NCBI GenBank assembly: GCA_963575745.1
Contig: CAUYUJ010000103.1
Location: forward strand, 248,001 to 312,000
Origin: Prorocentrum cordatum
Lineage: Eukaryota
Length of the DNA: 64,000 bases
Direction: 5' to 3'
Shown here: piece by piece, positions 1 through 25,100 of the stretch
How the letters are laid out: each line of letters starts with the position of its first letter
Numbering within the stretch: the stretch's first letter is position 1
Made by a program: the position numbers and the translations under genes
The notes under the pieces: generated by a model
What the model saw: only the letters and a program-made list of their open reading frames with translations
Told to the model about the DNA's origin: nothing
The model's database searches: none

Positions 1-1760
1 GCGCACGGCGACGCCATCCTCCGCAAGACACGGGACGAGGCCGAGCTGGGGCGCATCAGTTGCCCGGTGCCGCTCCGCGACGTGTGCCTGGACGGGGCCG
101 TCATCGCTCCGAGGTTTGTGGTTGAGCAGCTCCGTGAAGACGGGCCCTCGAAACTCCGGTTGGTCGACGACGTGACCAAGGCTAGGATTAACGAGGCGAC
201 GCGGCCTCAGGAGCGGCTCCACCACGATGCCGTGGACGCGCTTTTCGAAGCAGCTCGCATCTTCCAGGAAGTTGCGGGGCGGGCACCCGCCCTCTGGAAG
301 GCAGACATCGACGCTGCCCATTCGCGCTGAGCACCGCCGGTTCGCTTGGATCGTGTTCAGCGCCGCCGGGCAGGTCTGGGCGGCGCAGCACGCGGCAGCG
401 CCCTTCGGGGCCACGTCGTCGGTGCACAGCTGGGCGCGAGTGGGTGCCTTCATCGCGGAGGCGGCGCGCGTGCTCTTGCGGATCGCCGCGCTGCGATACC
501 TGGATGATTATTTTGGGCCGGATCACCCCGAAGTGGTGGAGCACGCAGCAGCGCAGCTGGCGGAGCTGATTCAGCTGATGCTCGGCCCAGGCGCGGTGGC
601 GCCGGACAAGATCGCCTGGGGGCCCCCGCTGGTCATCCTCGGCCTCGAAATCAAGGCGGGGCGGCCTTGGCGCGACGCGCCGGCCGGCCGGCTGTGCGCA
701 TCGCCAGGTGCTGCCACGCGCGTTCTGCGCGCGTCCCGCACCCGCGAAGACCGCCAAGTGGCAGCGTGTCATCGGCGAGGCGCTCGCGACGCGCGCCCTC
801 GCGCCAGGCGGCTCGCGCGCCCCCCCTAATGTGTCGGGACCTTGCGTTCGCTGTGCAGGCGCATCGTCCAAGCTGGCCGGGGGCTTGGCCTGGGCAGCGT
901 CGCATCTCTTCCGCCGCCTGGGGCGCGCCCTCCTCAGGCGCGGCGCTGCCCCCGCGCGCCCGGGGGGGCGGGGCGCTGCGCTTCGTGCTCGCAGGCCGTT
1001 GCACGCGCAATCGCATCGCGGGGAATCGAAGGCCCATGGGCCGTTGATGCTTGCCCTGCAGTGGTGGCGCGAGGTCTTGGCCATGGACTTGTGCCAAGCG
1101 CGGCCGTGGGCCGACAAGGCGCGGCCTCGCGCAACTCTCTTCGCGGACGCGTCGGGCCAACCACCGCGCGTGGCCGCGGTGCTCGTCACCGCCACGGGCG
1201 TCCGTTTCAATTCCATGGTCGTCCCGGATTCCTTGATGGCGTCGTCCCAGCGTCGCCGGGACAACCAGATTCAGGGGCTGGAGCTCCTGTCTATCGCGCT
1301 GGGCATGTGCACCTTTGCAGGCATTGCTTTCGCGTGCGACTGCCCGCGCCGGCGGGCAGGTCCGGCCCCTCGTCTTCGCTGCGCTCAGGGGAAGTGCAAG
1401 GTTGCGACTTGCATATTTACAGCGACAATACCGGCGCGGAGTCTTGCCTGCGGAAGGGCGCCGCGAAATCCTTCGACCACTCGTGCATCGTCCACTCCAT
1501 GTGGAGGCGCGCGGTGGAGCTCGACGTTGACCTCGCGGTTTTCCGCGTGCCCACGGCTGAGAATCTGGCCGATTTGCCTTCTCGGCGCGCCCGTGCGCGC
1601 CGCGCGGTGCTGCGGGCTGGCCGCGGGCGCAGCGTGTCGCAGGGGGGGCGACGAACTCCTGCTACGCATCGGCGCGGTGCGCACGCGCCCGTGGCTCGAC
1701 GAAGAATTCTGGCACGTGGGTGCCTGGGGCGCTCTCTCTGCGGCCCGCCTCTTCGGCTAA
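1..1760 (+). pseudogene. Spliced reverse transcriptase-RNase H (pol) of the YR retrotransposon; one frameshifting deletion near 314-320
   Basis: RT motifs: KLRLVDD, LWKADIDAA, PFGATSSV, YLDD (497-508), LVILGL. RNase H motifs: LFADASG, IQGLELLSI, IYSDNTGA, ENLADLPSR. Predicted exons 1-655, 708-807, 859-937, 995-1320, 1389-1584, 1643-1760(TAA), joined across GC..AG introns 656-707, 808-858, 938-994, 1321-1388, 1585-1642. Confidence 0.88.
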
Positions 1761-1953
1761 ACCGCGCGCCATGTCGCGCCCGGGCGCCATCTTGTGCGTC
1801 GGGGCGTCGCGATGCTTAAGTTTGGGCGCGGCAAAGCGTTCGGCGCGCCGCCGCGCTTGTCATCCTAGGGTCCCGCGTTTTGTCGCAAGCGGAGTGCACG
1901 CGGCCAGTGCCTCGGGCGCGTCGCTCGCATTGTCAGGCGCGCCGCGCGGCATC

Positions 1954-3516
1954 ATGTCGTTATTCCTTGAATTGTGTTCCTTGCGCCCGACAGCGCCCAG
2001 GACGGCCGTCGCCTGGGCTGCTGATTTCCTGGCTGAGAACGGCTTCGTACGAGCCTGCGAGCTCGCCAGTGCAGACGCCGCAGACCTGGAAGGTTGGCCG
2101 GTCACCGCGCAGGCCAATGTCGAAGTCCTGCACGAATTATTCAGAGCCGCGAAGATTGCTGCGCGCCGAGGCTCGGCTGCGCGAGGATTTTTGGCGCGCG
2201 CGGCCCCCCCCCCCGCCGCGCGTGCGCCTCGCAGGCGCGCCCGTCGCCGTGGGCTCGGCAGTTGGAGGGCGCGCGCCCGCCCGCAGCCGGTCGCCGGCGA
2301 GACGCGCGGCGCCGAGCGCCCCGGGGTCACCCCCTGGGCCGCCACAGGCGCGCGTCATCGGCCCCGCGCGCTTGCGCATGCCCGCGCGCCGTGGCTCGCG
2401 AGGCGCCCGCCCCGAGCGTCCTCGACCAGCTGGGCGCGCCGGTCGCGCTGCCAATAACGCGCGGGCCCCGGGCGGCGCTCGCCGAGGCCGCTGCTCGCCT
2501 CCGCAGTCCGGCGGACGCGGCCCGCTGGCGGGAGGAGGAACGCGTTCGCGCTATGCTGCAACCATGCGCACGGTCGCTCCCAAGCGTGAGAAGCGGCCTC
2601 AAATGCTGGGAGGCCTACTGCATCAGAATGTTGAAATACCCGTGCATGCAGCTCCCGCCAGCCTGCGCGGACCTGGTCGCCTGGAGCGCCCTCTTTCGCT
2701 GCGGGGAGACGTACGCAAATTACTGCAGCTACGTTAAGATCGGCTGCCTCCTGACTGGGGTCTGCGTCGCCGTGTTCGACCGCCCCGAGGTCAGGCGTGC
2801 GCGCGCCGCCGTCCGGGCGCGGGCCGATTGGACTCCGCGCCCGCGCTTGTTCATCCGTAAGAGCGCGGTCGCCGCGCTGGTCGAGTTGGGCGCGCGCCGC
2901 CCCGAGTGGCTCCGCGCGTCGATGCTTTTCCTTTTCGCCTACACGTTCTTGTTGCGTGTTCCCAGCGAGGCGTTGCCGGCCGTGCGCGTGGCCGACGCCG
3001 GCGACGCGCCGCCCTTTCAAGCGGCGCTAGTGCTGCGCAAATCGGAGCTCACGCTGCTGCTGCGGAGGCGGAAGAACCGGCCGCAGGGCAGTCGCCTGTC
3101 GCGGAAGTGCTGGTGCTCATCGTGCCGCGCCACGTGCCCCGTGCACACCCTGGGCCCCTGGGTGGCGCGTTGCGGGCTGGGCCGCGGGCTCTCCGGAGAC
3201 ATCTCGGCGGCTGCTGCGCTGCGGACCCTGCGCGGGATGCTCGCTGCCCTCGGTGTCCAGGGGGCGGGCCTGTTTCGGTTGCATGACCTCCGCAGGGGCC
3301 ACGCCAAGGACCTGCAGGAGGCTGGCGCGACGCTGGCCGAGATTCTCGCGGCCGGGGAGTGGCGGTCCTGCGCTTTCATGGCGTATCTCGACCGTGACGA
3401 TCTGGAAAGGGACGCGGTCGTGGAGGCGGGGCCACGCGCCCTCCGCCCGCGCCGCGGCGCGCTGCTCGCGCCAGGCGCACATGCTGGAGTCGGATTCGGA
3501 CGAGGGTGCCTGCTAG
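1954..3516 (+). CDS. Spliced tyrosine recombinase (DIRS-type)
   Basis: Catalytic set R (FLLRVPSE), K (RRKN), HxxR (HDLRRG), W (AGEWRS), Y (MAYLD). Predicted exons 1954-2170, 2235-2347, 2403-3425, 3475-3516 across GC..AG introns 2171-2234, 2348-2402, 3426-3474 give one open frame ending AHMLESDSDEGAC*. The first two exons are less certain than the catalytic exon. Confidence 0.85.
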
Positions 3517-3660
3517 GCGCCGGCGGCCAGCGCCGCCACGTTTCGCTTCTGTGCGTGGGCGGGCGCGCGCGACGGCGCCCGTGCTCTGCCCCCGCGCGTT
3601 CGGCAGCGGGTGGGCGCGCGTTGCCGGCCCGTGTCGCCTGCGTGCCGTGTGGCATTGGGT

Positions 3661-4343
3661 CTGCACGCAGGCGTGGCGCGAGGCCGCCCAAGCGGCGGCG
3701 CGTCGGGCCTGGGCCCGTCGCAGCCGCCCGCGGGGGGCAGCCTCGCGCCGCGCCGCTCCCACCGACGGCGGCAGCAGGCGGGGTCGAGGCCCTGCGCGCG
3801 CGGCTCGATTTGTGGTAGGCCCACGGCGGCAAGTCCGCTCGCAGACGCGGACGTTCACCGTTGTGGGCGGGCACGAATCGGCCACGGTTGCGCGTGGGTC
3901 GCGCGCGCGGCAGTGCGACGCGACCGTGGCCTCGCTGCGCAGGCGCGGGCCATCGCGCCGTCGCGCGCCAGGGCTGCGCGTCGCGGGGGGGGGGTCGCTG
4001 CCCCGCGGCGCGTGCGCTTCGCAAGTGATTTGCTAGCGCCGGGGTTGCGTCGCCGCGGGGGGGGGTCGCTGCCCCCGCGGCGCGTGCGCTTCGCAGGCGA
4101 TTTGCATTTGGAGGAGGCGCCGCGCGCGCGCCACGCGCGCGCGCGCGGCGGGTGCCTCCCTGGCGCGCGTTCTTTCTCCCACCCTCCGCCCTGTCTGCTG
4201 CGCGCAGGCGTGGCGCGAGGCCGCCCAAGCGGCGGTGCGTCGGGCCTGGGCCCGTCGCAGCCGCCCGCGGGGGGCAGCCTCGCGCCGCGCCGCTCCCACC
4301 GACGGCGGCAGCAGGCGGGGTCGAGGCCCTGCACGCGCGGCTC
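3661..4343 (+). repeat. 146-bp direct repeats (3661-3806 and 4198-4343) flanking a ~390-bp spacer; putative B1-A2-B2 split direct repeat end
   Basis: Two near-identical copies (ctgc[a/g]cgcaggcgtggcgcgagg...gcgcggctc) at offset 537, immediately 3' of the recombinase. Confidence 0.8.
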
Positions 4344-4351
4344 CTGGTCTC

Positions 4352-4624
4352 GGGCATGGCGCTGGCCCCAGGGCCATGTTTCGTGAGGGGGAGGGCGCAG
4401 GCCTTGGATCCCTGTGTTTTGGGTCGGGCGCTGGCCCCAGGACCCGATCGTGCGTGAGGGGGAGGGCGCATCCCGTTGATCCCTGTCTTGGGTAGGGCGC
4501 AGGCCCCAGGACCCGATGGTGCGAAGGGGGGAGGGCGCATCCCGTAGATCCCTGTCTTGGGTAGGGCGCAGGCCCCAAGGCCCAGTGGTGCGAAAGGGGG
4601 AGGGCGCATCCCGTTGATCCCTGT
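4352..4624. repeat. 69-bp minisatellite, about 4 units
   Basis: gatccctgt recurs at 4478, 4547 and 4616; the array is also present in the duplicate at ~15045-15312. Confidence 0.85.
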
Positions 4625-5827
4625 GTGTCGTATATCGTCGGGAACCTCGCGCGATCGTTCAGGAACAACGTGGACGGGTCTGCAATCTTGGGCTCGGGCT
4701 CCTTGGGCACGAGCGCCGTGTCGCCATGGGAGCTGGCAGCTGCCATCGCCGGGAGTAGCCTGGCGGAAGCAGGCGTTCGCAGGACAAAAGAAGGATTGGA
4801 TATGAGAGAGAATGTGGGCGACGATGGCAGGGGAGGAGAGGGGGATGAAGAAAGGAGCAGAGGATTTGGCAAAGGCAGGGGGATGGAGGGGGGAGGGTGG
4901 GAGGATAGGATAAGCGGACAAGAAACGGCTGACAGGGAACGTCATGGGAAGGCCACCACAGGCCACTCATCTCAGGGATTCCAGGGCCAGCGCTCGGAGG
5001 ACGAGGGCCAAGGTCGGAGAGGGCCGCGAAGGGCAGGTCGAGGGGCCGCGAAATGCTCCAACCAAGGGTCTCGCCACAATGGGGGGGGGGGGGGGGAATT
5101 GGCGCGGGGAGACGGCAAACATTTGCACTGAGAGCTCACCCCCTGCCGCGAACCACCGCCGCTGGCTGCCGCCCCCTGGCCCCCGCGGCCTCGGCGCCGC
5201 GGAGGCCCCGAGAGGCGGGGCGGACGAGGGGGGTGGGGCGGGGCGGGGGGGGGGGGGGCGTGGGGTCGGTAGGGGAGATTTTTTCGGAGCGCTTTCCCCC
5301 CACTCCCTCCTCCCTCCCTCTCCCCACATTCCCTCCCCCCCCCATCCCGCCCTTCCCCCCCCCCCCCCCCCCGCCCCTCCCCGCCCCCCCCCCCCCCGCC
5401 CCTCCCCCCCTTCCCCTTCCCGCTTCCCGCGCCCTCCCCGCCCCCCCGCCCCTGGCGCTTCGAATTTGTTCGGCCCGCACCCCCGCCGCACCCCCCTCTC
5501 GCTCTTCGAAATTGTTCTGCCCGCCCCCCCCCCCCCCCCTCCTTTTGGGCCCCTCTCCCCCCCTTCCCCCCTCTGGGCCCCCCTCCCTCCCCCGCCCGTC
5601 CCCGCGTTCTGGCGCTCCGAATCCCCCTCCCCCCCCCAGGGCCCCCATCCCCCCGGGATCGCGAGGTCGTCGAACCCCTCCGAACGGCCGCCCCGCAGCT
5701 CTCAGGGAGGGGTCGGCAGCGCTGCGCGGCGCCGCAGGGGGTCGGTCTAGAGCGGACCCAAGACTCACGAGACCTTGAAGCATCAAAGGTAGACATCAGA
5801 ATAATCAAACGCGAATCGAAGCGGATA

Positions 5828-5990
5828 TTAGAAAAATTCTGAGCGACCCGATGTGGAGTTTAGAAAAATGCTAAGGCCACTTGGCTGTACTAAGAAACAA
5901 TATATAAAGATCAAGCACCTTAGAACAATTCTAACATCCACCTCAAGTACCTTAGAAAAAAATCAAACATTCACCTCAAGACGCTTAGAA
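5828..5990. repeat. Degenerate ~31-bp AT-rich repeat with phased TTAGAA motifs
   Basis: TTAGAA at 5828, 5860, 5920, 5952 and 5985, plus a variant CTAAGAA near 5890; one unit is the imperfect palindrome ttagaacaattctaa. Confidence 0.6.
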
Positions 5991-6388
5991 TTTTCCCAAT
6001 ATCCTCTTCTGTGAGCTTGGTATTTTCAAGGGTCAGACTGCCGTTGCCTTTCTGATCTTACAGCGTTTGGGAGGCCCCCGTGACATGGAATTCACTGTTC
6101 GGGATGCCGTGCGCCCCCTCCCTCACTCCCTTCCCCTCCATCCACCCCGACCTTCTCCTCCTCGACTCTTCCTCTCATATCCCTCAACGAGCACTCTTGG
6201 GCGCAGCGTTTCCTCGTTCCATCGGCATCTTTTCCCCCCTCCCCGCCCCCCCTGTCCTCCCCCCGTCCTCCTCCCACGCTCCTCCCTCGCAGTCGCCACG
6301 TCGAGGCTTTCTTGCACCTGCGGCAGCGCCAACATATCCCCTGCGGCGCGCACCAATGGTTCAACCCTGACCCCACAGGGCAATGCAT

Positions 6389-9300
6389 TCACTCGTTCAG
6401 ACAAAAGGGGCAAACGAAAAGGCCCTCCTCTTCGAATGGAGACCCCATCCCAAAAGCACGTGCCACGTTCTCTGCGCACGCGCTGTGCCAGTACACAACG
6501 CACTCGGAACAAATGCACGAATCAAAGTGCTCTACGGGCTGCGCACCACCGCCGCCGACGACCCTGACATCCATGCCCATGGTGTCTGCGCACGCACAAA
6601 AAAAACGCAGGGGGCGTCGCAACTGAAGAGGCAGTCGCGAGCAATCGGACCAGAAAACAGTTCGGCCGCGAAGGCCTTCCTACTTAGCAAGCGCCAATCA
6701 GGCACACGCTCACGCAAGTCCTTGGGCCGCGTGATCCTGACAGGCACGTTCCCGATGATGATGTTGCAGTGGTCCCTGTCGCACTCCCTCTTGAGATGCT
6801 CAGTCGCAAGCGGCACGTTATACTTGAACCACAGGTGCTCGAGGCCCACCCTTGCTATTTTTGCAGACCTGCCAACGCCCTCCCAAACAACAAAGACAAC
6901 ATCGCAATGAACTTGACCATCTTCTGCAAATGATCGCAATTCAACCAACGATACCAAGCCCCGCTCTGGAGCATCTGAAATGTCAGCCCTGAAGCCGTAG
7001 TCCTCAGCGAAGTGCATCGCGTCCCGAGCAGATGCGCGGCTTGCCTCGCATGCGCCCCTCACGTTGCGGAGAAGCTCGGCTCGGTGGTCGCCAGAGATGG
7101 CGTCAACGGCGTCGCTTTTATCAGGCCCTGCATGGTTCTGTTGGTCAGGCTGTCGATCTCCAGCGTCGTCCTCAACGTCCGTATCCTTGCCGTCGCTCTC
7201 GAGGCCCTCGCTGGCGCCCTCGAGGTCCTCGCACTCCTCCTCCATGGCGTCCTGGGCAATCAATCGTTCAAGCTCCTCAGAAAAGCCGTCGTCGTCCTCA
7301 AGCATGTCAGGCAAACCGCCCTCGGCGTCGACTGTGTGTGCATTCTTTTTCTTGGGGCCATTGTAGGCCCGCTTGAACAGCGGCGTCACTTGGGCAGCGT
7401 CAGCGATCACCGAGGCGGCCTTCAACGACGTCCACGACAACTTGTACTGGACCAGATGCAAGCGAGGGCGCTGCTTCCGCCCAGCTGGAAGAGGGTGAAA
7501 TGCATGTAGGGCCTCACCAACCAGAGCACACGCGGTACGTTTGACAATTGGAACGTGCAAGTGAACATTGCATAGCTCGTCCACGTGGCCAGTTGCGCAA
7601 TGCATCGTCTTGTAGTGCGAAGTCCCCGCCAAGAATACAACGCTGCGATCTAAAGCAAGTGCGCGCGTATCAGGTGCGTCTGGGCCGACAATCACATACG
7701 CATACCTGGCTCCCAAGTCAGTCACATCAAATATGCTATAAGATATCGGAAGTGCTTCTCTGGCATTGTCGGGCAGGTCACCGACGAAGTGCGTGGCGGA
7801 CGTATTGCTCGATCCAATAAGAGGGGCAGCATCAGGATGAGGCCGTGCGCCGGCATCGCGCTCCTTGTTTGTGAGGGGGCTGAAGCGAAGCATGTTCGCA
7901 TCTGTCTTTGAGAACTCGACGACCTTCTTGTGCACTGCGACGGCCTCGTCGGTGGGGGTCCGTTCGCCAACTCTGTTCTTGAGGCGATCCGATGCCAGTC
8001 TCACTTTAGTGCGTGGAGCCCGTTCGCACATATTCTTCAACGCACTGTTCCAGCCTTCGATCTCCTGCGTCTCGCCATTGAATAACGCACGCCAGCCTGA
8101 AAGAAATATCCATGCCATTCTCGTGCACTCACCAGTGCCCTGCATGATGACGAAATCTTCATAGAACATGGCGCGTAACTTGAAGCTGAAGGAGTTGTAC
8201 ACGCCATCCCGCCACTCTAAGTTCTCCTTGGACGCAGTCATCAACCGATGGGCTAAGGCTTTGCGAGGGGCCGAGGCCTCCTCAGGGTCCGCCTCCAAGA
8301 CGTTGAGAAAGTCGAGTGGGAACCTCTGCGTGGGGTCGCACATCCGTCGCTCCCAATCAAGAGCGCCACGCACCACCAAGGCCACGATCAAGCACAATGC
8401 CTTCGAGGAGGTCCGAACGCCGAACGAAATCAGACCACCGAAAACGAACCGAAAACTCAAAACCAACTGGTGTATTTTCATTGTTGTGAAGTTTCTTTTG
8501 GCGTTGCGAACCTCCTCGACATGTTCTGGTACATCGCCAGCTCGAATCAGACTCCAGGTGCCGACCCAGTGCGTCAGCATGGCGTCGTCGTCCAGGAGGG
8601 CGCTGAACTCGTCTATGATAACCTTGGCCTTGCCCGACGCGAACTTAGAAACGAAGGTTGGACCCGTGTAGGCGGTCCCTTGCTTTGATGCTTCCGATCG
8701 GTGTTCTCGCTCAATCTTGCTCTCCTGCTGCGCCCAACGCTGGAAATGAGCAAGGGGCCCCTTCGCGACGAGGTCGATCTCAGCTGTCCCCAAAAACAAC
8801 TTGTCATTCAACAAGGCAACCGTGGTCTGGCGGTAGTTTCGGCGTTTCTCGTGCCACTCGGCGTCCTCACCGTCCAGCTTTTTCGTATTCTTCTTTGTCT
8901 TGTCTGCGTCTGTGTCGTCGAGCTTCGGCCACGTGCGTCTGACAGCGGGTCCAAGTACATGCCGACCATTCCTCAAGTACATCTCGATGTCGTCAACGGA
9001 GCCCCACCGCGTCGCGATAACCCGATGAATGGTGTTGCCAACAGATTATTTGACAACCTTGGGTGGGAACTTGAGCTCGGCAGCTGCTTCTCTGACTTTC
9101 CGTGGGACGCCTGTGCCTCTCAGAGTGTTCGCGATAACCTTCAAACCAGAAAGAAACGAAGAAGATCCCCAGGGCGTATGCCATTCCCAATTGTTCGTGA
9201 TATCAACCATGCTCTGCTGGATCAGCGCGTTCTGATGGAAGCGGCAAAAATAACTAGATATAATCACCCAACGGACGTTAGAAACAGCTGCGACTGCAGC

Positions 9301-10584
9301 TCGAACGAGGCCTACACAGTCAGGTCCGCTATCTAAGCAAAAATGATAACTCCGAAAGCTAGGTCCATCTCGGCATGCGGCCTCCATCCACGCCGGAAGC
9401 CCCGCATTGCGAAACTGTCGCGTCACCGAGTCTGCGGTTTCTTTTGCACCGCCCGTCCGAACTGTTTGCAAGTCCAGCACTTCCCGAAATAATGTCAGCT
9501 TGAGGTCGTCACTGTCGAAGTTGGTGTCGCTGCTGATGTCGCTCAACGCCTCTGGGCATGTTGCAATGTAACTGGCTTCACCTGTCCACACTTCTGCCTT
9601 GTCGACTGCCTCTTGGTTCGTGGCGTCGCCCCTGAACATGAAGAACTCGAAGCTGAACAACTTGCCCCCAATCAACGCCACCATATCCCCACTGTCCAGA
9701 GAAGCCGCCCTCGCGTAGTTGATGCATATCTCATTCGATGTCACGTGCAAGTGATTGACCGAGTCATAGAATGATTTGACGACCACGGTCCTGGCAATGG
9801 ACAGGTTATGCTCGAAGCGGATGACCATGTTCTTGGCGCCGTCTGTGAAGGACCCCTGCCACTCCTCGCCAGCACACATGGCCACGACAGATCGTGCGCT
9901 GCTGCAGCCGTAAGACCTCTTGTACGCCAAATGGTCGCCGCCCCATATGCTGACGCAGCGCTTGCCTGGTCTGAAGTTCGTTTTCTGCACAAGTGAACGG
10001 TGGGTGTCGTGTAGGATCCGAGATTTTTGCGTGTGTAGCCCCAGGCGCTGCTCCGTCGTCGCCAGCCGTCGTTTCACCTGCTTGAGTTCGGACTGCAAGA
10101 GTGTTAGTTCGTTGTCTCGCTCCACCATCTGCACTGCCAAATCGTACCTGGGCATCTCGTAGTAGACAGAGACGCTCGGGCGCTGGACCACGTCGAAGCC
10201 GCCTTGGATCTCCGCTGCGAGCGCCAGCGCATCCTTGACCTCGTTACCGTCGGGCGCCTGGATAACTGGGACGTCAATCGATTCTGCCAGCTTCTCAAAA
10301 ACTCCTACCAGCGTGGCCTCCGACACAACAGCGGCGCCCAGGAACGAGTTGACCAACAAGTGAAAGCATTCGAACCTGATGCCGTGATTATCCGCACGCA
10401 TGCCGAGGCCGGAGATAGTGTCCTATATCGTTTTGGGTTGCACGTCCAGACGCAAGGCACCCAACATATCTCTGATGGCTCGAGCGCTCACAGTACCTGT
10501 CGAAACAATCGTTCGGGTGACATGCTTTCTGGCACTCAGGTGCTGAAAAATCTGAGTGGCGATCGAACTCTCAGTCCGAAGCAT
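6389..10584 (-). pseudogene. hAT/Dada-like DDE transposase with a C-terminal PHD-type zinc finger
   Basis: One frame from ATG 10584 carries FRGDATN (D), FCLDSGPD (D), CRFHQ (CxxH), ATRWGS and TQEIEGWNS (E), then an acidic linker. After a homopolymer shift at 6598-6605 come CVF..C / CSEC-x4-HSAC / CPFC. In-frame stops lie near 10425 and at 9046-9048. A probable 111-nt GT-AG intron spans 8401-8511. Confidence 0.72.
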
Positions 10585-10601
10585 TGTCGTGCCGAAGCAA
10601 G

Positions 10602-10622
10602 CTTTGAGCCCAAATGGCTACG
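10602..10622 (-). other. Relic dinoflagellate spliced leader
   Basis: The minus strand reads CGTAGCCATTTGGGCTCAAAG versus DinoSL DCCGTAGCCATTTTGGCTCAAG; it lies 17 nt upstream of, and in sense with, the transposase ATG. Confidence 0.85.
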
Positions 10623-11279
10623 CGGACGACCTTTGGACCCTGGGACCCTTGCTGTTAAGCATTCCCTTATCGTCCCATTTTGGCGTTTTGGAGGCGCTGG
10701 GTAAGGATACCTTCGGGAATCCAGGGTCTCGCGACCGATCTGCAGCTTGAAAAAAAAAAAAAAAACTCATCCCCCTCCGCCCCCGTCTTCTCATCCACCT
10801 CCCCGCACTGTACTCCGAGGCGCTATGGCCAGAGGCCCCACAACTCAGGAACGGCGCTCTCGCCCGAGGCACCCCCGCAATTCTATCAAGCTGGCGATGC
10901 GCCCGTGGGCGCGTTAGCTCGCGTGACGGCCGCGGCGGCACGGTGCGCATTGGCTCTTGGGCCTTGGGGAGGGGACGTACGAGAACGATAAAGGAAAAGA
11001 AGGCGCCTTCAAGGCTTCCTCTTTTCCTTTATCGTTCTCGTACGTCGTCGTCATCATCGCCGTTCTCATCGTCGCCGTCGTCATCGTCGCCGCCGCCCCA
11101 GCCAGACAGGCGCCCCGCCTCGGGAGGGGGCCAGGGGGCCGCCCCGCGGCGGACGCGCGCGGCCGGCGCAAAGCGCTGCGGCCCGCGAAGGGGGGGGGGG
11201 AGGAGGATGTCAATGCGCAGCACACTTGTACATCCTGCAACATTCCTCACACTGCTCTGCCGCCTACCCTACATAATCT

Positions 11280-13861: not shown

Positions 13862-15032
13862 TTGCGGGCTGGGCCGCGGGCTCTTCGGTGGCATCTCGGC
13901 GGCTGCTGCGCTGCGGACCCTGCGCGAGATGCTCGCTGCCCTCGGTGTCCAGGGGGCGAGCCTGTTTCGGTTGCATGACCTCCGCAGGGGCCACGCCAAG
14001 GACCTGCAGGAGGCTGGCGCGACGCTGGCCGAGATTCTCGCGGCCGGGGAGTGGCGGTCCTGCGCTTTCGTGGCGTATCTCGACCGTGACGATCTGGAAA
14101 GGGACGCGGTCGTGGAGGCGGGGCCACGCGCCCTCCGCCCGCGCCGCGGCGCGCTGCTCGCGCCAGGCGCACATGCTGGAGTCGGATTCGGACGAGGGTG
14201 CCTGCTAGGCGCCGGCGGCCAGCGCCGCCACGTTTCGCTTCTCTGCGTGGGCGGGTGCGCGCGACGGCGCCCGTGCTCTGCTCCCGCGCGTTCGGCAGCG
14301 GGTGGGCGCGCGTTGCTGGCCCGTGTCGCCTGCGCGCCGTGTGGCATTGGGTCTGCACGCAGGCGTGGCGCGAGGCCGCCCAAGCGGCGGTGCGTCGGGC
14401 CTGGGCCCGTCGCAGCCGCCCGCGGGGGGCAGCCACGCGCCGCGCCGCCCCCACCGACGGCGGCAGCAGGCGGGGTCGAGGCCCTGCACGCGCGGCTCGA
14501 TTTGTGGTAGGCCCACGGCGGCAAGTCCGCTCGCAGACGCGGACGTTCACCGTTGCGGGCGGGCACAAATCGGCCACGGTTGCGCGTAGGTCGCGCGCGC
14601 GGCAGTGCGACGCGACCGCGGCCTCGCTGCGCAGGCGCGGGCCATCGCGCCGTCGCGCGCCAGGGTTGCGCGTCGCGGGGGGGGGGGTCGCTGCCCCGCG
14701 GCGCGTGCGCTTCGCAGGTGATTTGCTAGCGCCGGGGTTGCGTCGCCGCGGGTGGGGGTCGCTGCCCCCGGCGCGTGCGCTTCGCAGACGATTTGCATTT
14801 GGAGGAGGCGCCGCGCGCGCGCCCCGCGCGCGCGCGGCGGGTGCCTCCCTGGCGCGCGTTCTTTCTCCCACCCTCCGCCCTGTCTGCTGCGCGCAGGCGT
14901 GGCGCGAGGCCGCCCAAGCGGCGGTGCGTCGGGCCTGGGCCCGTCGCAGCCGCCCGCGGGGGGCAGCCTCGCGCCGCGCCGCTCCCACCGACGGCGGCAG
15001 CAGGCGGGGTCGAGGCCCCGCGCGCGCGGCTC
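13862..15032 (+). mobile_element. 3' fragment of the YR retrotransposon (recombinase C-terminus, last intron, split repeats)
   Basis: HDLRRG...AGEWRS...AYLD; intron 14118-14166; stop at 14208; direct repeats 14353-14498 and 14887-15032. Confidence 0.88.
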
Positions 15033-17037
15033 CTGGTCTCGGGTAAGGCGCTGGCCCCAGGGCCATGTTTCGTGCGGGGGAGGGCGCAGGCCTTGGATCC
15101 CTGTGTTTTGGGTCGGGCGCTGGCCCCAGGACCCGATCGTGCGTAAGGGGGAGGGCGCATCCCGTTGATCCCTGTCTTGGGTAGGGCGCAGGCCCCAGGA
15201 CCCGATGGTGCGAAGGGGGGAGGGCGCACCCCGTAGATCCCTGTCTTGGGTAGGGCGCAGGCCCCAGGGCCCAGTGGTGCGAAAGGGGGAGGGCGCATCC
15301 CGTTGATCCCTGTGTGTCGTATATCGTCGGGAACCTCGCGCGATCGTTCAGGAACAACGTGGACGGGTCTGCAATCTTGGGCTCGGGCTCCTTGGGCACG
15401 AGCGCCATGTCGCCATGGGGGCTGGCAGCTGCCATCGCCGGGAGTAGCCTGGCGGAAGCAAGCGTTCGCAGGACAAAAGAAGGATTGGATATGAGAGAGA
15501 ATGTGGGCGACGATGGCAGGGGAGGAGAGGGGGATGAAGAAAGGGGCAGAGGACTTGGCAAAGGCAGGGGGATGGAGGGGGGAGGGTGGGAGGATAGGAT
15601 AAGCGGACAAGAAACGGCTGACAGGGAACGTCATGGGAAAGTCCACCAACAATGCCACGCATCTCAGGGAATTCCAGGGCCAGCGCTCGGAGGTCGAGGG
15701 CCCGGTCGAACAGGGCCGCGAACTGCCTCCAGGTCCTCGCCACAATGGGGGGGGGGGAATAATGGCGCGGGGAGACGGGCAAACATTTGCACTGAGAGCT
15801 CACCCCCTGCCGCGAACCACCGGCCGCTGGCTGCCGGCCCCCTGGTCCCCGCGGCCTCGGCGCCGGAGGGAGGGGGAGCGGGGGGGAGGCCCCGAGAGGC
15901 GGTGCGGACGAGGGGGGGGGGCGGGTGGGGGAGGCGGGGGGGGTGCGGGTGGAACTTGTCTGAGCGCTTCCCCCATCCTCCCTCCCCTCCCTCTCCCCAC
16001 CTTCCCCGCCCCCCGCCCCTCCCCCGGCGCCCCCCGCCCCGCCCCTCCCCGCCCCCCCCCCGCCCCTTCCCCCTTCCCGCTTCCCGCGCTCGCCGCCCCC
16101 CCCCCTGGCGCTTCGAATTTTGGTCGGCCGCCCCCCGCCCCGCCCCCACCTCTGGCGCTTCGAATTGTTCTGGCCGCCCCCCCCCGCCCCCCCTCCTTTG
16201 GCCCCTCTCCCCCTCCCCCCTCTGGGCCCCCCTCCCTCCCCCGCCCGTCCCCCGCTGTTCTGGCGCTCCGAATCCGCACCCCCCCCAGGGCCCCCATCCC
16301 CCCGGGATCGCGAGGTCGTCGAACCCCTCCGAACGGCCGCCCCGCAGCTCTCAGGGAGGGGTCGGCAGCGCTGCGCGGCGCCGCAGGGGGTCGGTCTAGA
16401 GCGGACCCAAGACTCACGAGACCTTGAAGCATCAAAGGTAGACATCAGAATAATCAAACGCGAATCGAAGCGGATATTAGAAAAATTCTGAGCGACCCGA
16501 TGTGGAGTTTAGAAAAATGCTAAGGCCACTTGGCTGTACTAAGAAACAATATATAAAGATCAAGCACCTTAGAACAATTCTAACATCCACCTCAAGTACC
16601 TTAGAAAAAAATCAAACATTCACCTCAAGACGCTTAGAATTTTCCCAATATCCTCTTCTGTGAGCTTGGTATTTTCAAGGGTCAGACTGCCGTTGCCTTT
16701 CTGATCTTACAGCGTTTGGGAGGCCCCCGTGACATGGAATTCACTGTTCGGGATGCCGTGCGCTCCCTCCCTCACTCCCTTCCCCTCCATCCACCCCGAC
16801 CTTCTCCTCCTCGACTCTTCCTCTCATATCCCTCAGCGAGCACTCTTGGGCGCAGCGCTTCCTCGTTCCATCGGCATCTTTTCCCCCCTCCCCGCCCCCC
16901 CTGTCCTCCCCCCAGCCTCCTCCCGCGCCCCTCCCTCGCAGTCGCCGCGTCGAGGCTTTCTTGCACCTGCGGCAGCGCCAACATATCCCCTGCGGCGTGC
17001 ACCAATGGTTCAACCCTGACCCCACAGGGCAATGCAT

Positions 17038-20000
17038 TCACCCGTTCAGACAAAAGGGGCAAACGAAAAGGCCCTCCTCTTCGAATGGAGACCCCATCCC
17101 AAAAGCACGTGCCACGTTCTCTGCGCACGCGCTGTGCCAGTGCACAACGCACTCGGAACAAATGCACGAATCAAAGTGCTCTACGGGCTGCGCACCACCG
17201 CCGCCGACGACCCTGACACCCATGCCCATGGTGTCTGCGCGCGCACAAAAAAAAACACGCAGGGGGCGTCGCAACTGAAGAGACAGTCGCGAGCAATCGG
17301 ACCAGAAAACATTTCGGCCGCGAAGGCCTTCCTACTTAGCAAGCGCCAATCAGGCACACGCTCACGCAAGTCCTTGGGCCGCGTGATCCTGACAGGCACG
17401 TTCCCGATGATGATGTTGCAGCGGTCCCTGTCGCACTCCCTCTTGAGATGCTCAGCCGCAAGCGGCGCGTTATACTTGAACCACAGGTGCTCGAGGCCCA
17501 CCCTTGCTATTTTTGCAGACCTGCCAACACCCTCCCAAGCAACAAAGACAACATCGCAATGAACTTGACCATCTTCTGCAAATGATCGCAATTCAACCAA
17601 CGATACCAAGCCCCGCTCTGGAGCATCTGAAATGTCAGCCCTGAAGCCGTAGTCCTCAGCGAAGTACATCGCGTCCCGAGCAGATGCGCGGCTTGCCTCG
17701 CATGCGCCCCTCACGTTGCGGAGAAGCTCAGCTCGGTGGTCGCCAGAGATGGCGTCAAAGACGTCGCTTTTATCAGGCCCTGCATGGTTATGTTGGTCAG
17801 GCTGTCGATCTCCAGCGTCGTCCTCAACGTCCGTATCCTTGCCGTCGCTGTCGAGGCCCTCGCTGGCGCCCTCGAGGTCCTCGCACTCCTCCTCCATGGC
17901 GTCCTGGGCAATCAATCGTTCAAGCTCCTCAGAAAAAAGAAAAAGCCCGTCGTCGTCCCTCAAAGAAGCAATGTCAGGCAAACCCCGCCCTCCAGGTCGG
18001 CGCTGGTGTGTGTAATTCTTTTCCCTGGTGCCATTGTATTCCCGGCATTGAACATAGCGGGCGTCACTTGGCAAGTCGTCAGCGATCACTCGATGAGGGG
18101 GCGTCCTTCAACGACGCCAACGACAACTTGTTAAACAGGACCAGATGCAATCGAAGGCCGCTGGCTTCCGCCCAGCTGGAAGAGGGTGAAAATTATTCAT
18201 GTAGGGCCACACCAAAAACAAACGTGGGGGCGGAGGAGGGGAGAGCGGGGGTGTGTGGGGGGAGGAGGGGGAGAGAAATGCATGTAGGGCCTCACCAACC
18301 AGAGCACACGCGGTACGTTTGACAATTGGAACGTGCAAGTGAACATTGCATAGCTCGTCCACGTGGCCAGTTGCGCAATACATCGTCTTGTAGCGCGAAG
18401 TCCCCGCCAAGAATACAACGCTGCGATCTAAAGCAAGTGCGCGCGTATCAGGTGCGTCTGGGCCGACAATCACATACGCATACCTGGGTCCCAAGTCAGT
18501 CACATCAAATATGCTATAAGATATCGGAAGTGCTTCTCTGGCATTGTCGGGCAGGTCACCGACGAAGTGCGTGGCGGACGTATTGCTCGATCCAATAAGA
18601 GGGACAGCATCAGGATGAGGCCGTGCGCCGGCATCGCGCTCCTTGTCTGTGAGGGGGCTGGAGCGAAACATGTTCGCATCTGCCTTTGAGAACCCGACGA
18701 CCTTCTTGCGCACTGCGACGGCCTCGTCGGGGGGAGTCCGTTCGCCAACTCTGTTCTTGAGGCGGTCCGATGCCAGTCTCACTTTAGTGCGTGGAGCCCG
18801 TTCGCACATGTTCTTCAACGTACTGTTCCAGCCTTCGATCTCCTGCGTCTCGCCATTGAATAACGCGCGCCAGCCTGAAATACATATCCATACCATTCTC
18901 GTGCACTTACCAGTGCCCTGCATGATGAAGAAATCTTCATAGAACATGGCACGTAACTTGAGGCTGAAGGAGTTGTACACGCCATCCTGCCACTCTAAGT
19001 TCTCCTTGGATGCAGTCATCAACCGATGGGCTAAGGCTTTGCGAGGAGCCGAGGCCTCCTCAGGGTCCGCCTCCAAGACGTTGAGAAAGTCGAGTGGGAA
19101 CCTCTGCGGGGGGCCGTACATCCGTCGCTCCCAATCAAGAGCGCCACGCACCACCAAGGTCACGATCAAGCGCAATGCCTTCGAGGAGGCCCGAACGCCA
19201 AACGAAATCAGACCACCGAAAACGAACCGAGCACTCAAAACCAACTGGTGTATTTTCATTGTTGTGAAGTTTCTTTTGGCGTTGCGAACCTCCTCGGCAT
19301 GTTCTGGTACATCGTCGGCTCGAATCAGACTCCAGGTGCCGACCCAGTGCGTCAGCATGGCGTCGTCGTCCAGGAGGGCGTTGAACCCGTCTAAGATAAC
19401 CTTGGCCTTGCCCGACGCGAACTTAGAAACGAAGGTTGGACCCGTGTAGGCGGTCCCTTGCTTTGGTGCTTCCGATCGGCGGTCTCGCCCAATCTTGCTC
19501 TCCTGCTGCGCCCAACGCTGGACATGAGCAAGGGGCCCCTTCGCGACGAGGTCGATCTCAGCTGTCCCCAAAAACGACTTGTCATTCAACAAGGCAACCG
19601 TGGTCTGGCGGTAGTTTCGGCGTTTCTCCTACCACTCAGCGTCCTCACCGTCCAGCTTTTTTCGTCTTCTTCTTTGTCTGCGTCTGTGTCGTCGAACTTC
19701 GGCCACGTGCGTCTGACAGCGGGTCCAAGTACATGCCGACCATTCCTCAAGTACATCTCGATGTCGTCAACGGAGCCCCACCGCGTCGCGATAACCCGAT
19801 GAATGGTGTTGCCAACAGATTATGTGGCAACCTTGGGCGGGAACTTGAGCTCGGCAGCTGCTTCTCTGACTTTCCGTGGGACGCCTGTGCCTCTCAGAGT
19901 GTTCGCGATAACCTTCAAACCAGAAAGAAACGAAGAAGATCCTCAGGGCGTATGCCATTCCCAATTGTTCGTGATATCAACCATGCTCTGCTGGATCAGC

Positions 20001-21379
20001 GCGTTCTGATGGAAGCGGCAAGAATAACTAGATATCACCACCCAACGGACGTTAGAAACAGCTGCGACGGAAGCTCGAACGAGGCCTACACAGTCAGGTC
20101 CGCTATCTAAGCAACAATGATAACTCCGAAAGCTAGGTCCATCTCGGCATGCGGCCTCCATCCACGTCGGAAGCCCCGCATTGCGAAACTGTCGCGTCAC
20201 CAAGTCTGTGGTTTCTTGTGCACCGCCCGCCCGAACTGTCTGCAAGTCCAGCACTTCCCGAAAGAATGTCAGCTTGAGGTCGCCACTGTCGAAGTTGGTG
20301 TCGCTGCTGGTGTCGCTCAACGCCTCTGGGCATGTTGCAATGTAACTGGCTTCACCTGTCCACACTTTTGCCTTGTCGACTGCCTCTTGGTTCGTGGCGT
20401 CGCCCCTGAACATGAAGAACTCGAAGCTGAACGACTTGCTCCCAATCAACGCCACCATATCCCCACTGTCCAGAGAAGCCGCCCTCGCGTAGTTGATGCA
20501 TATCTCATTCGATGTCGCGTGCAAGTGATTGACCGAGTCATATAATGTTTTGACGACCACGGTCCTGGCAATGGACAGGTTATGCTCGAAGCGGATGACC
20601 ATGTTCTTGGCGCCGTCTGTGAAGGACCCCTGCCACTCCTCCCAAGCAGCGATGGCCAACGACAGATCGTGCGCCGCGCAGCCGTGAGACCTCTTGTAAT
20701 TTTAACTCCAAAAGAATGCCCCCCATATGGCTGACCGCAAGCGCTTGCCTGGTCCTGAAGTTTCGTTTTTTCTGCAAATGAAACGTGGTGTCGTGTAGAT
20801 CCGAGATTTTTTGCGTGTGTAGCCCCAGGCGTGCTGCTCCGTCGTCGCCAGCGTCGTTCACCTGCTTTGATTCGACTGCAAGAGTGTTAGTTTCGTTGTC
20901 TCGCTCCACATCGTGCACTGCCAAAATCGTACTTTGGCATAACTCGTAAGTAGAACAGAGACGCTCGGGGCGCTGACCACACGTCGAAAATCCCGCCTTT
21001 GGATCTCCGCTGCGAGCGCCAGCGCATCCTTGACCTCGTTACCGTCGGGCGCCAGGATAACTGGGACGTCAATCGATTCTGCCAGCTTCTCAAACACTTC
21101 TACCAGCGTGGCCTCTGACACAACAGCGGCGCCCAGGAACGAGTTGACCAACAAGTGAAAGCCTTCGAACCTGATGCCGTGATTATCCGCACGCATGCCG
21201 AGGCTGGATATAGTGTCCTTTATCGTTTTGGGTTGCACGTCCAGACGCAAGGCACCCAACATATCTCTGATGGCTCGAGCGCTGAGAGCGCCTGTCGAAA
21301 CAATCGTTCTGGTGACATGCTTCCTGGTACTCAGGTGCTGAAAAATCTGAGTGGCGATCGAACTCTCAGTCCGAAGCAT
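17038..21379 (-). pseudogene. Second, more disrupted copy of the hAT-like transposase-PHD gene
   Basis: ORF pieces 20858-21379, 19943-20659, 18108-19592, 17181-18089 and 17038-17274 match copy 1. There is a short purine-rich insertion near 18185-18275. Confidence 0.72.
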
Positions 21380-21396
21380 TGTCGTGCCGAAGCAAA

Positions 21397-21417
21397 CTTT
21401 GAGCCCAAATGGCTACG
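21397..21417 (-). other. Relic dinoflagellate spliced leader (duplicate copy)
   Basis: Same motif as 10602-10622, 17 nt upstream of ATG 21379. Confidence 0.85.
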
Positions 21418-21821
21418 CGGACGACCCTTGGACCCTGGGACCCTTGCTGTTAAGCATTCCCTTATCGTCCCATCTTGGCGTTTTGGAAGCGTTGGGTAAG
21501 GATACCTTCGGGAATCCAGGGTCTCGCGACCGATCTGCAGCCTGAAAAAAAACTCATCCCCCTCCGCTCCCGTCTTCTCCTCCACCTCCCCACACTGTAC
21601 CCCGAGACGCTATGGCCAGAGGCCCCAAAACTCAGGAACGGCGCTCTCGCCCGAGGCGCCCTCACAATTCTTTCAAGCTGGCGACGTGCCCGTGCGCGCG
21701 TTAGCTCGCATGACGGCCGCGGCGGCACGGTGCGCATTGGCTCTTGGGCCTTGGGGAGGGGACGCACGAGAACACGAGAACGATAAAGGAAAAGAGGGCG
21801 CCTTCAAGGCTTCCTCTTTTC

Positions 21822-22043: not shown

Positions 22044-22106
<63 letters not shown>

Positions 22107-22123
22107 GCACACACACACACACG

Positions 22124-22168
<45 letters not shown>

Positions 22169-25100
22169 CCCCCATCCCTCCCCCAACACACACGCACACC
22201 ACCGCCACGCAAACCGCTCCCACAACGCACACACACACACGCAGGGACGCGTGCACACCACCACAATACGCGCACGCACACACACGCACAGACACACGCG
22301 GACACACACACACACACACCCACGCACACACACACACGCACCTGCGCACCACCACCACCATCACCACACCGCCACCACCACGCACGCGCACACACGCACA
22401 CACACGCGCCCACCCACTCACCACACAGAGGCGCACGCGCGCACGCACCCGCACAAGCACGTATGCACCCACACACGCACGCACACGCACACACACACAT
22501 CAGGGACGCGCGCTGGCACATGCACGTTCGCACATACACGCGCAAACACGCACGCGCGCACACACACACTCACGCGCATGCGCGCACACGCGCGCCCCTC
22601 ACGCACACGCACACACACACGCGCACAACGCATGCACGCACGCGCGCACGCACGCACGCGCACCCCCCCCCCACCACCACCGCGCCCCCCCCATCACCAC
22701 GTCCCCCCCCCCCCACCACTACCACCCACTCTCATTATCCAGGGGGCCGCGAGATCTCGTCTGGTTGCGTGGCGTACAACTCCGCTGGATTGCCCAGGAG
22801 CTCACAGAAGTTGCGACAGTTGCGCCGTTGACAGCCCCCCCCCCCCCTCCCCCTCGCAATGCAAAGGCTCGTGGTCAAGTCTTGCCGGGCCCATGCTGCG
22901 TGTAACCCTGCCATGGTCTGAGCCATCCCTGCCTAGCTCAGCCGAGTCAGCCCAGTCTGAGCCAACTCGAATGCAATGGTCGTATAAGTGTGGGTGCCGA
23001 GTGTGCACGCAAAGGGCCCCACCGTTCGCTGTGCCTGAGGAAGATCTGTGGGCCAGTGTGTGTGTCCCGGGGTGGGGTGGGGAGGAGGGCGCTTGCGGGG
23101 CCCGAGTGATGTGTTCATTTGATTTTTTGTTTATTGGCTGGGCTCACGGTCCCAGCGCTGCAGGATTTCGGACGTCGGAGTCGCGCCCGGTCGCGCTTGA
23201 ATCGCATCGCCCCCCCCACCCCCCCCCACCCCCCCCCCCCCCCCCAGGGATGCGCGCGACGGGCCCTGCGCATCCAAGTCGCAGGCCACAGGCGGTCGCG
23301 AACTGGCCCAAGGGCCCCGCGTGGCACGCGCCAGGCGCGGCGTCGCAGGCCGCGAGGGCTCGCGTCTTACGCCCCGAGAGCTCGCGTCGGCGGGGCCACG
23401 CCTCGACCCCAAAGCGAAGAAACGTTCTAGACATCATCGTGGCATTCGTTTTCGCATACTTCCACGCGGTAGTCCTCGCAATCCCATCGCGGCGCCCTTC
23501 GTTCTTCCGTTCCCCTATCTGTTCCGCCCTGCCCCCGCTCGGCGATGGGCGCGTCGCCCAAAATTAATAATTTGCCGACGAAGAATTGTCAGGGATTTTC
23601 CAACATGGCCACTTGTGTTTTTCCATCCCAGGTCGCGGCAGAGCCAGGGGCGCGGCGCAGGCAGCGATCGCCAGTGGTCCCAGAGCATAGGGTCGAGCGC
23701 AACGTTCTCGAATAACGGACTGCGTGACGCCTCCGGCCGGGGGATGAGCGCACTGTCGCAAGATGGGCGGCCCCGAGAGCGTCGCAAAGCGACGGCCGAG
23801 GAAAAGCTCGCGCGCGACCAGTGGGGGGCCAAAATGGACAGGACAAGTGGGGGCGCCCGCGCAAACGGAGCGGCGGCCACATTTTCGCCGCCGCGCAGAA
23901 CATGAAGAAAAACGAAGCGCCTGGAGGACCCGGCGGTGGACAACGCGATGAATTCAAAGGGAAGGGGGAAGGAGGGGGAACCGAGTCAGTGCTGGAGGTT
24001 TGTTGCGACTGGCTCTCGCCGCCATGGAAGGGGTCGCCGGGGTGGCGGGGGGGGGGGCGGGCGGGGGGGGGGGCGCTCCTTGGCGCCCGCGGCGAGGGCA
24101 GCTGGCGCGCAGCGGCAGTCTCGATGGCGTCGGCGCCGCGGGCGGGGGCGGCGGTTTCGATGCCGCGCCTCCACGTGAGAGCGCATTTATAAACGCTTCC
24201 TCTGCGGCGGCTTACGCCCGCCCCTCGCGCGCGTTCCCATCGCGCCCCCCGGGGGAGGACACCGCGGGCAATGAGAATGTCGCCGGGCGACGCCTTCGCG
24301 TCTGACCCCAGGTGGGCAAGAGACAGAGAGCAGCGCGATGACGCGAATCGGGGCCTAGCTAACGACAAGGCTGCTAAAACGGAAGAAGACGCACGGCGTC
24401 TATGGACCAATTAGGAACGATGCTCAGACGGTGCCTTTTCCGACGCCTGCCGCGACTCGGAGGGCGATTGCGTCGCTGCGTCTGCGCGGAGAACCTTCGA
24501 CGCAACGTGCGTTAAACGAGCTGGCCCGGCTCGTCTGGGCCACGCGCGTTTTGTTATTCGCGCAGGGTGCGGATTTAATTTGATAGCTGCGCGCTTTCGA
24601 GAGCCCCGGCTAACAGACAGGATCAAGTCTTTGCGAACGCATATAACCCTCGACCCCGCTGGGGGGGCGAGCGCAGGCTCTCGGCGCCGTGAAAATCGCG
24701 AGCGATGAGCCGTGCGGGGGGAGCATTTGGGCCATTGTCATGCCGGACGCGGCGAGCGTGATATCGGTGGGTGAACTCTGCGTTGACCGCGACCACAGAT
24801 TCAACGCCGGCGGAGACCCGGCGGAGCCCCGCGCCTACTTCTACCAAGTGGAGGACGTCTTGACCTGACAGTGGATGGCAAGATCCCGTGCAGAACCATG
24901 GAAGGCAGAGGGGCCCTGGGTCAGGTAGACGAGGAATCTCCCGGGGGCCCGGCAGGGCTGGCGCGGTGGGCTTGCGTTGAGACTAGCGCGAAGATCTTCC
25001 TCGGCGATCCTGTGAAGGCGGGGGCCGTCCGCCCCAGGCGATCAGGCATCGCGCAACCTTTCAAATGCGCTCGCAAATGGCCATTGCCGAGGTCGCGCAT

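Follow-up and report, generated by a model that had tools for sequence, protein, structure and literature searches.

Because copying from mature mRNA erases introns, retrotransposons should lack them, with Penelope-like elements as the textbook exception. Dinoflagellate genomes are full of retroposed genes. How, then, could a dinoflagellate retroelement keep eight introns in the genes for its own enzymes? This question is raised by the start of a 64,000-nucleotide stretch of Prorocentrum cordatum DNA (assembly GCA_963575745.1, contig CAUYUJ010000103.1, positions 248,001 to 312,000 of the forward strand), hereafter called the window. Positions 1–4700 hold, on the + strand, the 3' part of a retroelement with genes for a reverse transcriptase (RT), an RNase H (RH) and a tyrosine recombinase (YR). 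An initial annotation, made from the letters alone, had proposed that these genes are interrupted by eight introns of 49–68 nt. Our analysis supports the intron-like nature of the eight segments and favours, with moderate confidence, a lineage of DIRS-order elements that passes such introns on to new copies.

Eight intron-like segments and their signals

All eight segments were found at the positions proposed for them (a slash marks an exon–intron border or, within a protein motif, the exon junction):

656–707, + strand: intron 1, 52 nt, phase 0, LGLEIK/VLP
808–858, + strand: intron 2, 51 nt, phase 1, in frame; homologues are 17 residues shorter there
938–994, + strand: intron 3, 57 nt, phase 2, in frame; homologues are 19 residues shorter there
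1321–1388, + strand: intron 4, 68 nt, phase 1, CTFA(G)EVQG
1585–1642, + strand: intron 5, 58 nt, phase 2, inside the Arg codon of ..ADLPS(R)..
2171–2234, + strand: intron 6, 64 nt, phase 1; boundaries less certain than those of introns 1–5 and 8
2348–2402, + strand: intron 7, 55 nt, phase 0; boundaries less certain
3426–3474, + strand: intron 8, 49 nt, phase 0, AVVE/AHM

As described, each segment begins with GC after an exonic G and ends in AG before a G, reading G/GC...AG/G; the preceding dinucleotide is AG in seven cases and CG in one. Six of the eight lengths are not multiples of three. Reconstruction of the reading frames bore out the claim that six segments shift the frame and that excision restores continuous RT–RH and YR frames: with all eight removed, one RT/RNase H frame runs from position 317 to the TAA at 1758–1760, and one YR frame from the ATG at 1954 to the TAG at 3514–3516.

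The G/GC donor and AG/G acceptor fit a dinoflagellate host. The excerpted part of the P. cordatum genome report (PMC10666404, Table 2) lists GT, GC and GA as 24.7, 51.4 and 23.8 % of intron donors and AGG as 79.7 % of acceptors, in agreement with the earlier statement that GC donors are common in dinoflagellates. For Emiliania huxleyi, 56–60 % GC donors were reported (PMC4028052); a haptophyte host was for this reason also weighed, but was set aside for a dinoflagellate once the P. cordatum relative P0216 had been found. The same part of the P. cordatum report gives a genomic G+C content of 59.7 %, a mean intron length of 4709 bp and an enrichment of introns in introner elements (PMC10666404). 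The segments are far shorter than this mean, and their G+C content is 82 % compared with 70 % for the rest.

Chains of tblastn matches from eight intron-free homologues, run without the coordinates of the initial annotation, provided a test that does not depend on it. Between colinear matches, 52, 51, 57, 68 and 58 nt of extra DNA were found for segments 1–5, with one chain giving 54 nt for segment 2. With long intron-free homologues, the frame switched exactly at segments 1, 4 and 5, and gaps of 17 and 19 residues appeared at segments 2 and 3. When four RT/RH queries were used to place the borders, the proposed GC..AG placement scored within 0–4 units of the best one for 11 of 17 breaks, and the remaining six had no GY..AG within this margin; for intron 3, GC..AG at 938–994 was the best-scoring placement for all four queries. 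A MAFFT alignment of the spliced RT/RH product with 13 homologues contained no gap at any of the five junctions. Homologues encoding the segments as protein had been named as evidence that would speak against introns; instead, the intron-free homologues lack the segments and fix the lengths of segments 1–5.

In the YR gene, junction 8 is contiguous (..AVVEAH..ESDSE..) in the relative P0003 (84 % identity) and in about 30 more distant YR homologues. Segments 6 and 7 carry the frame from 0 to 1 to 2. The exon between them holds a conserved RSRSP motif in an otherwise poorly conserved linker, and this motif and the ..AARRG end that flanks intron 6 are kept in P0004–P0010. The proposed boundaries are accordingly exact for segments 1–5 and 8, as judged from homologues, and only approximate for segments 6 and 7.

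Although a G+C content of 70–82 % makes GC and AG/G common, chance does not readily account for the pattern. A GY..AG pair of the length fixed by homologues occurred within ±9 nt at 0.167 of random sites in the region, so that eight out of eight would be expected with a probability of about 6e-7; the strict G/GC..AG/G form had a random rate of 0.024 per site.

The segments also evolve differently from the exons. In relatives whose open reading frames (ORFs) read through them, 818 of 965 exon residues are identical to the window copy, compared with 60 of 112 residues in the segments. The read-through of intron 2 agrees with that in P0060 at 9 of 17 residues (neighbouring exon, 30 of 33), and that of intron 6 with P0214 at 9 of 22 (exon, 61 of 72). 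P0058, P0059 and P0060 share 443 identical upstream residues and yet exit intron 1 in three different frames, indicating that indels accumulate in the intron; three lengths of intron 1 exist among the read-through copies P0057–P0061, which are about 92 % identical. Taken together, absence from homologues, disruption of the frame and faster evolution than the exons support the view that the eight segments behave as introns with dinoflagellate-type signals. Frame and homology are restored on removal, exactly for segments 1–5 and 8 and approximately for 6 and 7, as would be expected of spliceosomal introns of this type.

Introner elements, which occur as many similar copies with inverted repeats at their ends, were considered as a source and, as far as the window shows, rejected. 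When the eight segments were compared with each other and with the window, no significant similarity was detected; the only exceptions were the copy of segment 8 in the duplication and a stretch of 25 nt that resembles part of segment 6. Folding z-scores of the segments against shuffled sequences ranged from -1.9 to +1.3, indicating no fold beyond composition.

The closest named relative is the P. cordatum NCBI gene model P0216 (83 % over the YR N-terminus). This gene prediction joins junction 4 exactly (..CTFAG/ELQG..), shares the intron 6 donor and reads through intron 8. In P0216 and in two further gene models, P0062 and P0217, a predicted intron fuses pol to the YR ORF and removes the pol stop and the YR start codon; two of the three models extend into unrelated downstream genes. 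The pol–YR joins are likely artefacts of the predictor, but may also reflect a fusion transcript.

Enzymes and layout of the element

Pfam searches of the exon pieces of the window yielded nothing significant, with Phage_integrase reaching only E 0.1. The part of the study of Symbiodinium DIRS-like retrotransposons by de Mendoza et al. (2018) available as an excerpt describes the RTs of dinoflagellate DIRS elements as too diverged to be recognized by Pfam seed models (PMC5890265). Of 12 homologues, seven matched RVT_1 (best E 6.2e-7; the close relative P0057 only at E 0.015) and two matched RT_RNaseH (best E 1e-4). The AlphaFold (AF2) model of the intron-free homologue P0078 had a predicted local distance difference test (pLDDT) score of 88.3, and its top Foldseek matches in the PDB were the RTs of cauliflower mosaic virus (CaMV), foamy virus, Ty3 and human immunodeficiency virus (HIV), with E 2e-12 to 1e-9. 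A search of PDB sequences with the RT/RH profile had given no meaningful match, which made the fold search necessary. Among the RNase H columns of the homologue alignment, ..DA(S/R)G.., ..E(L/I)L.., ..SDN.. and ..N(I/L)AD.PSR.. stand out as conserved; we take these to be the catalytic D-E-D-D set.

A YR profile built from 27 sequences matched Cre recombinase (E 0.0012) at Cre residues 286–336, the catalytic C-terminus, and columns with R, K, R, H, W and Y are invariant in the YR alignment. Among the Atlas neighbours of the YR homologue P0010, one cluster is named 'Recombinase cre' and the rest are unnamed. In all but one of the 38 metagenome loci that have an RT/RH match, the YR follows downstream of this match in the same orientation. 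The element thus combines an RT of the long terminal repeat (LTR)/retroviral type, an RNase H behind the RT and a tyrosine recombinase in place of a DDE integrase. These features support its classification as a tyrosine-recombinase retroelement with DIRS-order layout, an RT/RNase H ORF followed by a YR ORF, as far as sequence and modelled fold can tell. The LTR/retroviral RT fold and the downstream tyrosine recombinase speak against membership of the Penelope-like elements. The features of the element in the window are as follows:

1–1760, + strand: 3' end of the pol ORF, with RT followed by RNase H, containing introns 1–5; TAA at 1758–1760
314–315, + strand: frame break at the site of a 14-nt deletion, interrupting the motif ..KADIDAAFRRVPIRAEH.. 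that is present in relatives
1954–3516, + strand: YR ORF, ATG at 1954, TAG at 3514–3516, containing introns 6–8
3661–3806, + strand: direct repeat B1, 146 nt, 98 % identity with 4198–4343
3965–4105, + strand: 71-nt tandem unit, two copies, between B1 and B2; the unit end resembles the 3' end of intron 6
4198–4343, + strand: direct repeat B2, 146 nt; the B1/B2 pair fits the B..A..B portion of split direct repeats
4347–4624, + strand: 69-nt tandem repeat, four copies, directly after B2
13862–15389, + strand: second, 5'-cut copy of the 3' end of the element, equal to 3170–4700 and part of a 7.9-kb segmental duplication

The pol ORF is truncated inside the RT by the start of the window. Upstream of this point, the close relative P0057 has about 230 extra residues, and the gene model P0217 includes an additional ORF1-like part further upstream. 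DIRS-type termini consist either of inverted repeats with an internal complement or of split direct repeats in the order A1..B1-A2-B2. Of these, the B1/B2 pair was found, and the 5' end including A1 lies outside the window. A methyltransferase-like domain between RNase H and YR is a feature of DIRS1/PAT, as opposed to Ngaro or VIPER. Here, the spacer between the RNase H stop (1760) and the YR start (1954) is 193 nt and leaves no room for such a domain, and no Pfam family was detected in any piece.

The Symbiodinium elements resemble this one in having a dinoflagellate host and a Pol ORF with RT and RNase H followed by a separate YR ORF, and their repeat layout, A-coding-B-A-B, fits the B1/B2 pair seen here, according to the excerpt of PMC5890265. 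They differ in that this excerpt describes them as annotated with intron-free ORFs, many with a DNA methyltransferase (DNMT) domain (PMC5890265), a comparison made by description only.

Two observations concern the region behind the YR gene. The last 25 nt of intron 6 (2210–2234, including the acceptor) match 4001–4023 and 4072–4096 within the 71-nt tandem units at 91–92 % (E 2e-4 to 3e-3 within the window). This likeness may be due to chance in G+C-rich DNA or to an acceptor-like motif within the repeat. Long poly-G/poly-C tracts lie just past the element at 5050–5650.

Copies, relatives and shared intron sites

The window copy lacks 14 nt behind position 314. This loss breaks the RT frame just ahead of ..RRVPI.., where P0057–P0061 are intact. 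The initial annotation had recognized the RT/RH–YR retroelement with its intron-like segments, and this part stands, but it had missed the frame break, which makes this copy defective. The second copy in the window belongs to a segmental duplication of about 7.9 kb (3170–11026 = 13862–21821, about 94 % identity, offset about 10.7 kb) that covers the 3' end of the element and 6 kb of flank. Intron 8 is identical in the duplicate (49/49, at 14118–14166); this second copy is not a separate insertion. Another duplicated block in the window comprises 22094–25435 and 31610–34907 (86–98 %).

Further copies, presumably from the same assembly as the window, are located on other contigs with different neighbours. 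P0062 and P0217, on contigs of 987,180 and 183,608 nt, represent such copies, and the last 261 residues of P0062 match nothing in the window. The letters of introns 4 and 5 are kept in both, those of intron 1 in P0062 only. The possibility that the introns belong to a single-locus copy, which the initial annotation had regarded as fatal to intron-retaining mobility, is at odds with these copies, which keep the same segments. Metagenome ORFs of 81–96 % identity read through introns 1–3 (P0057–P0061), 4–5 (P0064, P0065), 5–6 (P0213–P0215) and 7–8 (P0001, P0002). P0064 reads through a 69-nt in-frame version of intron 4, and the ORFs of P0001, P0002 and P0216 start within the 3' end of intron 7 (..VAREAP..). 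At the level of sequence, these comparisons show that the segments predate the divergence of subfamilies that are 81 % identical.

A check for intronless copies had also been proposed. We used four runs (X1, X3, X6 and X10), which consist of contigs of DNA or unknown kind and were matched at 90 % likeness or above. In these four runs, no joint skipping any of the eight segments was found, and contigs span all eight in unspliced form. The 14 nt missing behind 314 are present in contigs of X1, X3 and X10, and contigs of X6 share the deletion. In X6, the tail between the B repeats (3769–4239) has a word depth of about 600–1200 versus about 34 in the coding part; in X1 and X3 the excess is slight. 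The B-repeat tail is far more abundant than the element body in the X6 organism, perhaps because it also occurs as solo repeats or in other families.

A scan of marine metagenomes with the YR alignment yielded 255 relatives, from which 80 loci with 32–56 % identity were kept. In addition, 491 representatives at E <= 0.001 and several close variants of the window's own element family were found. The tblastn-chain script detected 152 places with 30–600 nt of extra DNA in 43 of the 80 loci, and 140 of these places were refined. Near-best placements comprised GT..AG in 66 and GC..AG in 24 of them. Other terminal pairs reached at most 16 each, except for one-or-two-base shifts of GT..AG/GC..AG (GG..CA 68, TG..GG 32, AG..GC 31, TA..GG 26), and GA..AG was not among the 40 commonest pairs. 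This gives 90 introns of the G/GY..AG/G type in 37 of the 80 loci. Their median length is 57 nt, with 86 between 49 and 71 nt; 85 have a G before the donor, 80 a G after the acceptor, and 63 shift the frame or hold a stop. The maximum per locus is 13 breaks (L078, L080).

Some intron sites are shared across these relatives. The site and phase of intron 5 (phase 2, in the Arg of ..PS(R)..) recur in L046, L072, L075, L077 and L078/L080, and the site and phase of intron 1 probably recur in L074. Sixteen of 79 loci have an intron in the YR motif ..DLQLS(G)APLW.., and 14 of these loci fall in one clade of 25 rows (support 99) that includes intron-poor members. Its distribution requires four changes on the YR tree, compared with at least 11 in 200 shuffles. 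The tree was computed with FastTree and is unrooted; near-duplicate loci were included, and one locus with a short row was dropped from the 80. New here is the observation that 37 of 80 related loci have similar tiny introns, partly at shared sites, one of which follows the YR tree. Near-identical intron-bearing metagenome pairs are alike right up to their contig ends and hence carry no information about insertion sites. Positions 1–2882 of L017 repeat at 6445–9326 (6444-nt period, 100 % identity), which could reflect a tandem array or a circular molecule, and L031 joins the 3' end of the L009 element to its 5' start in a head-to-tail manner.

In the remainder of the window, 38 long ORFs were inspected; only a Copia-like element was found, and no host gene with a family. 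This retroelement (41010–50517, + strand) encodes a zinc knuckle, an rve integrase core and RVT_2 in ORFs in three frames, and its frame changes may be introns or decay. An (AGG)n array lies at 40383–40809, and a 3.2-kb degenerate (GTA)n array with a strong G-over-C skew and low G+C at 57591–60823.

How a retroelement could keep its introns

On balance, we favour a DIRS-order lineage with genuine dinoflagellate-type spliceosomal introns in its pol and YR genes that are passed to new copies and daughter subfamilies. Full-length enzymes can be translated only from RNA from which all eight segments have been removed. The template copied would most likely be an unspliced full-length transcript, and a spliced fraction of the RNA would act as mRNA, with the proteins supplied in trans. 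Since RT and RNase H are conserved, copying of unspliced full-length RNA is the simplest route for a lineage that keeps its introns. Occasional copying of spliced or partly spliced RNA could give rise to intron-poor relatives. The B1 and B2 repeats of the window copy are still 98 % alike. Only tentatively do we extend this proposal to a whole clade in dinoflagellate-like plankton, whose members would have a gene-like structure with up to 13 tiny introns in RT, RNase H and YR that are inherited through retrotransposition, the choice of template being uncoupled from splicing.

Several observations weigh against this reading. Neither copy in the window demonstrates recent transposition, the first being defective and the second a product of segmental duplication. 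The relative P0003 (84 %) lacks intron 8, although its record may be either DNA or RNA. The gene models P0062, P0217 and P0216 place other introns around segments 1, 5, 6 and 7. Among the metagenome loci, a GY..AG placement is lacking for 50 of the 140 refined breaks, the tree overstates the clustering because it includes near-duplicate loci, and shared sites could be parallel gains at AG/G proto-splice sites.

Another way to keep real introns would be to spread only as DNA, by segmental duplication, in tandem arrays or by recombinase-mediated excision and integration of double-stranded circles in the manner of Cryptons. Introns would then be kept without any special rule, and intron-bearing Cryptons are known, according to the excerpted part of the Glomhopper study (PMC13465315). 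The location of the second window copy in the 7.9-kb duplication agrees with such a route. So do the head-to-tail relatives (the 6444-nt period of L017 and the L031/L009 join), but arrays of this kind are equally expected from integration of circular cDNA. We nevertheless consider spread by DNA alone unlikely: RT and RNase H motifs are conserved throughout the family, including intron-rich members, which suggests selection for reverse transcription, and intron-poor members that branch within intron-rich groups look as if they had been copied from spliced RNA.

Somewhat less likely again, in our estimate, is that the members with introns have become host genes, immobilised or domesticated, that gained their introns afterwards and now multiply only by ordinary gene duplication. 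The long-term retention of intron positions along the tree does resemble a host gene family, host annotation pipelines call gene models across the copies, and the window copy is decaying, as seen from its 14-nt deletion. Intron gain is also active in such hosts, judging from the introner-enriched introns in the excerpted P. cordatum report (PMC10666404), but the eight introns show no introner features. Moreover, the two-ORF layout of RT/RH followed by YR and the direct repeats are retained, and the family comprises many diverged subfamilies, as is evident from the 255 relatives, the 491 representatives and the several close variants. Finally, it is very improbable that the segments are not introns but insertions in a dead pseudogene that GC..AG strings flank by chance, or coding insertions specific to this lineage: besides the base composition, two segments are in frame without stops and Pfam found nothing significant in the exon pieces, but six segments shift the frame while all exons remain open and conserved, all eight carry GY..AG at the length fixed by homologues, the segments persist in relatives of 81–96 % identity while diverging faster than the exons, and the more distant relatives carry 90 introns with the same signals.

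A retroelement lineage that keeps introns as proposed here has few parallels. Kangaroo-1 of Volvox carteri (Duncan et al. 2002) is listed, in the excerpted part of PMC1636488, among retroelements with introns in their transcripts. It bears out the earlier remark that introns are only sporadic in the DIRS order, and resembles the present element in its DIRS-order membership and its introns; it has split direct repeats, a layout that the B1/B2 pair seen here would fit (PMC1636488, same excerpt). Unlike in this green-algal element, 8–13 introns are found here in RT, RNase H and YR, some at positions common to a deep clade. Penelope-like elements (Arkhipova et al. 2003) are also retroelements that keep introns, and their intron-keeping through retrotransposition was called 'highly unusual among retroelements' in the excerpted part of Craig et al. 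(2021, PMC8557442). They have a telomerase-like RT, a GIY-YIG endonuclease and mostly uninterrupted ORFs, in contrast to the LTR/retroviral-type RT fold and tyrosine recombinase found here. Cryptons such as Glomhopper are YR-encoding mobile elements that often bear introns, but they move as DNA, have no RT, and their intron positions are reported in the excerpted part of PMC13465315 as unshared between copies, whereas RT/RH lies upstream here and some positions are shared. A full-text literature search, whose coverage excluded most subscription journals and supplements, retrieved no account of DIRS-order elements that are rich in introns and have intron sites in common.

One practical consequence is that intron-blind searches miss or fragment such elements, and that gene predictors fuse copies to host genes, as in P0062, P0217 and P0216. 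For the biology of the family, the element lineage would need 8–13 splicing events to produce its own enzymes and yet keeps its introns over deep divergence. This bears on the choice of RNA template by DIRS-order elements and on the place in the cell where copying occurs, and is relevant to intron gain and loss in dinoflagellates. If the wider reading for the whole clade is true, a retrotransposon would have introns as a stable and perhaps selected component.

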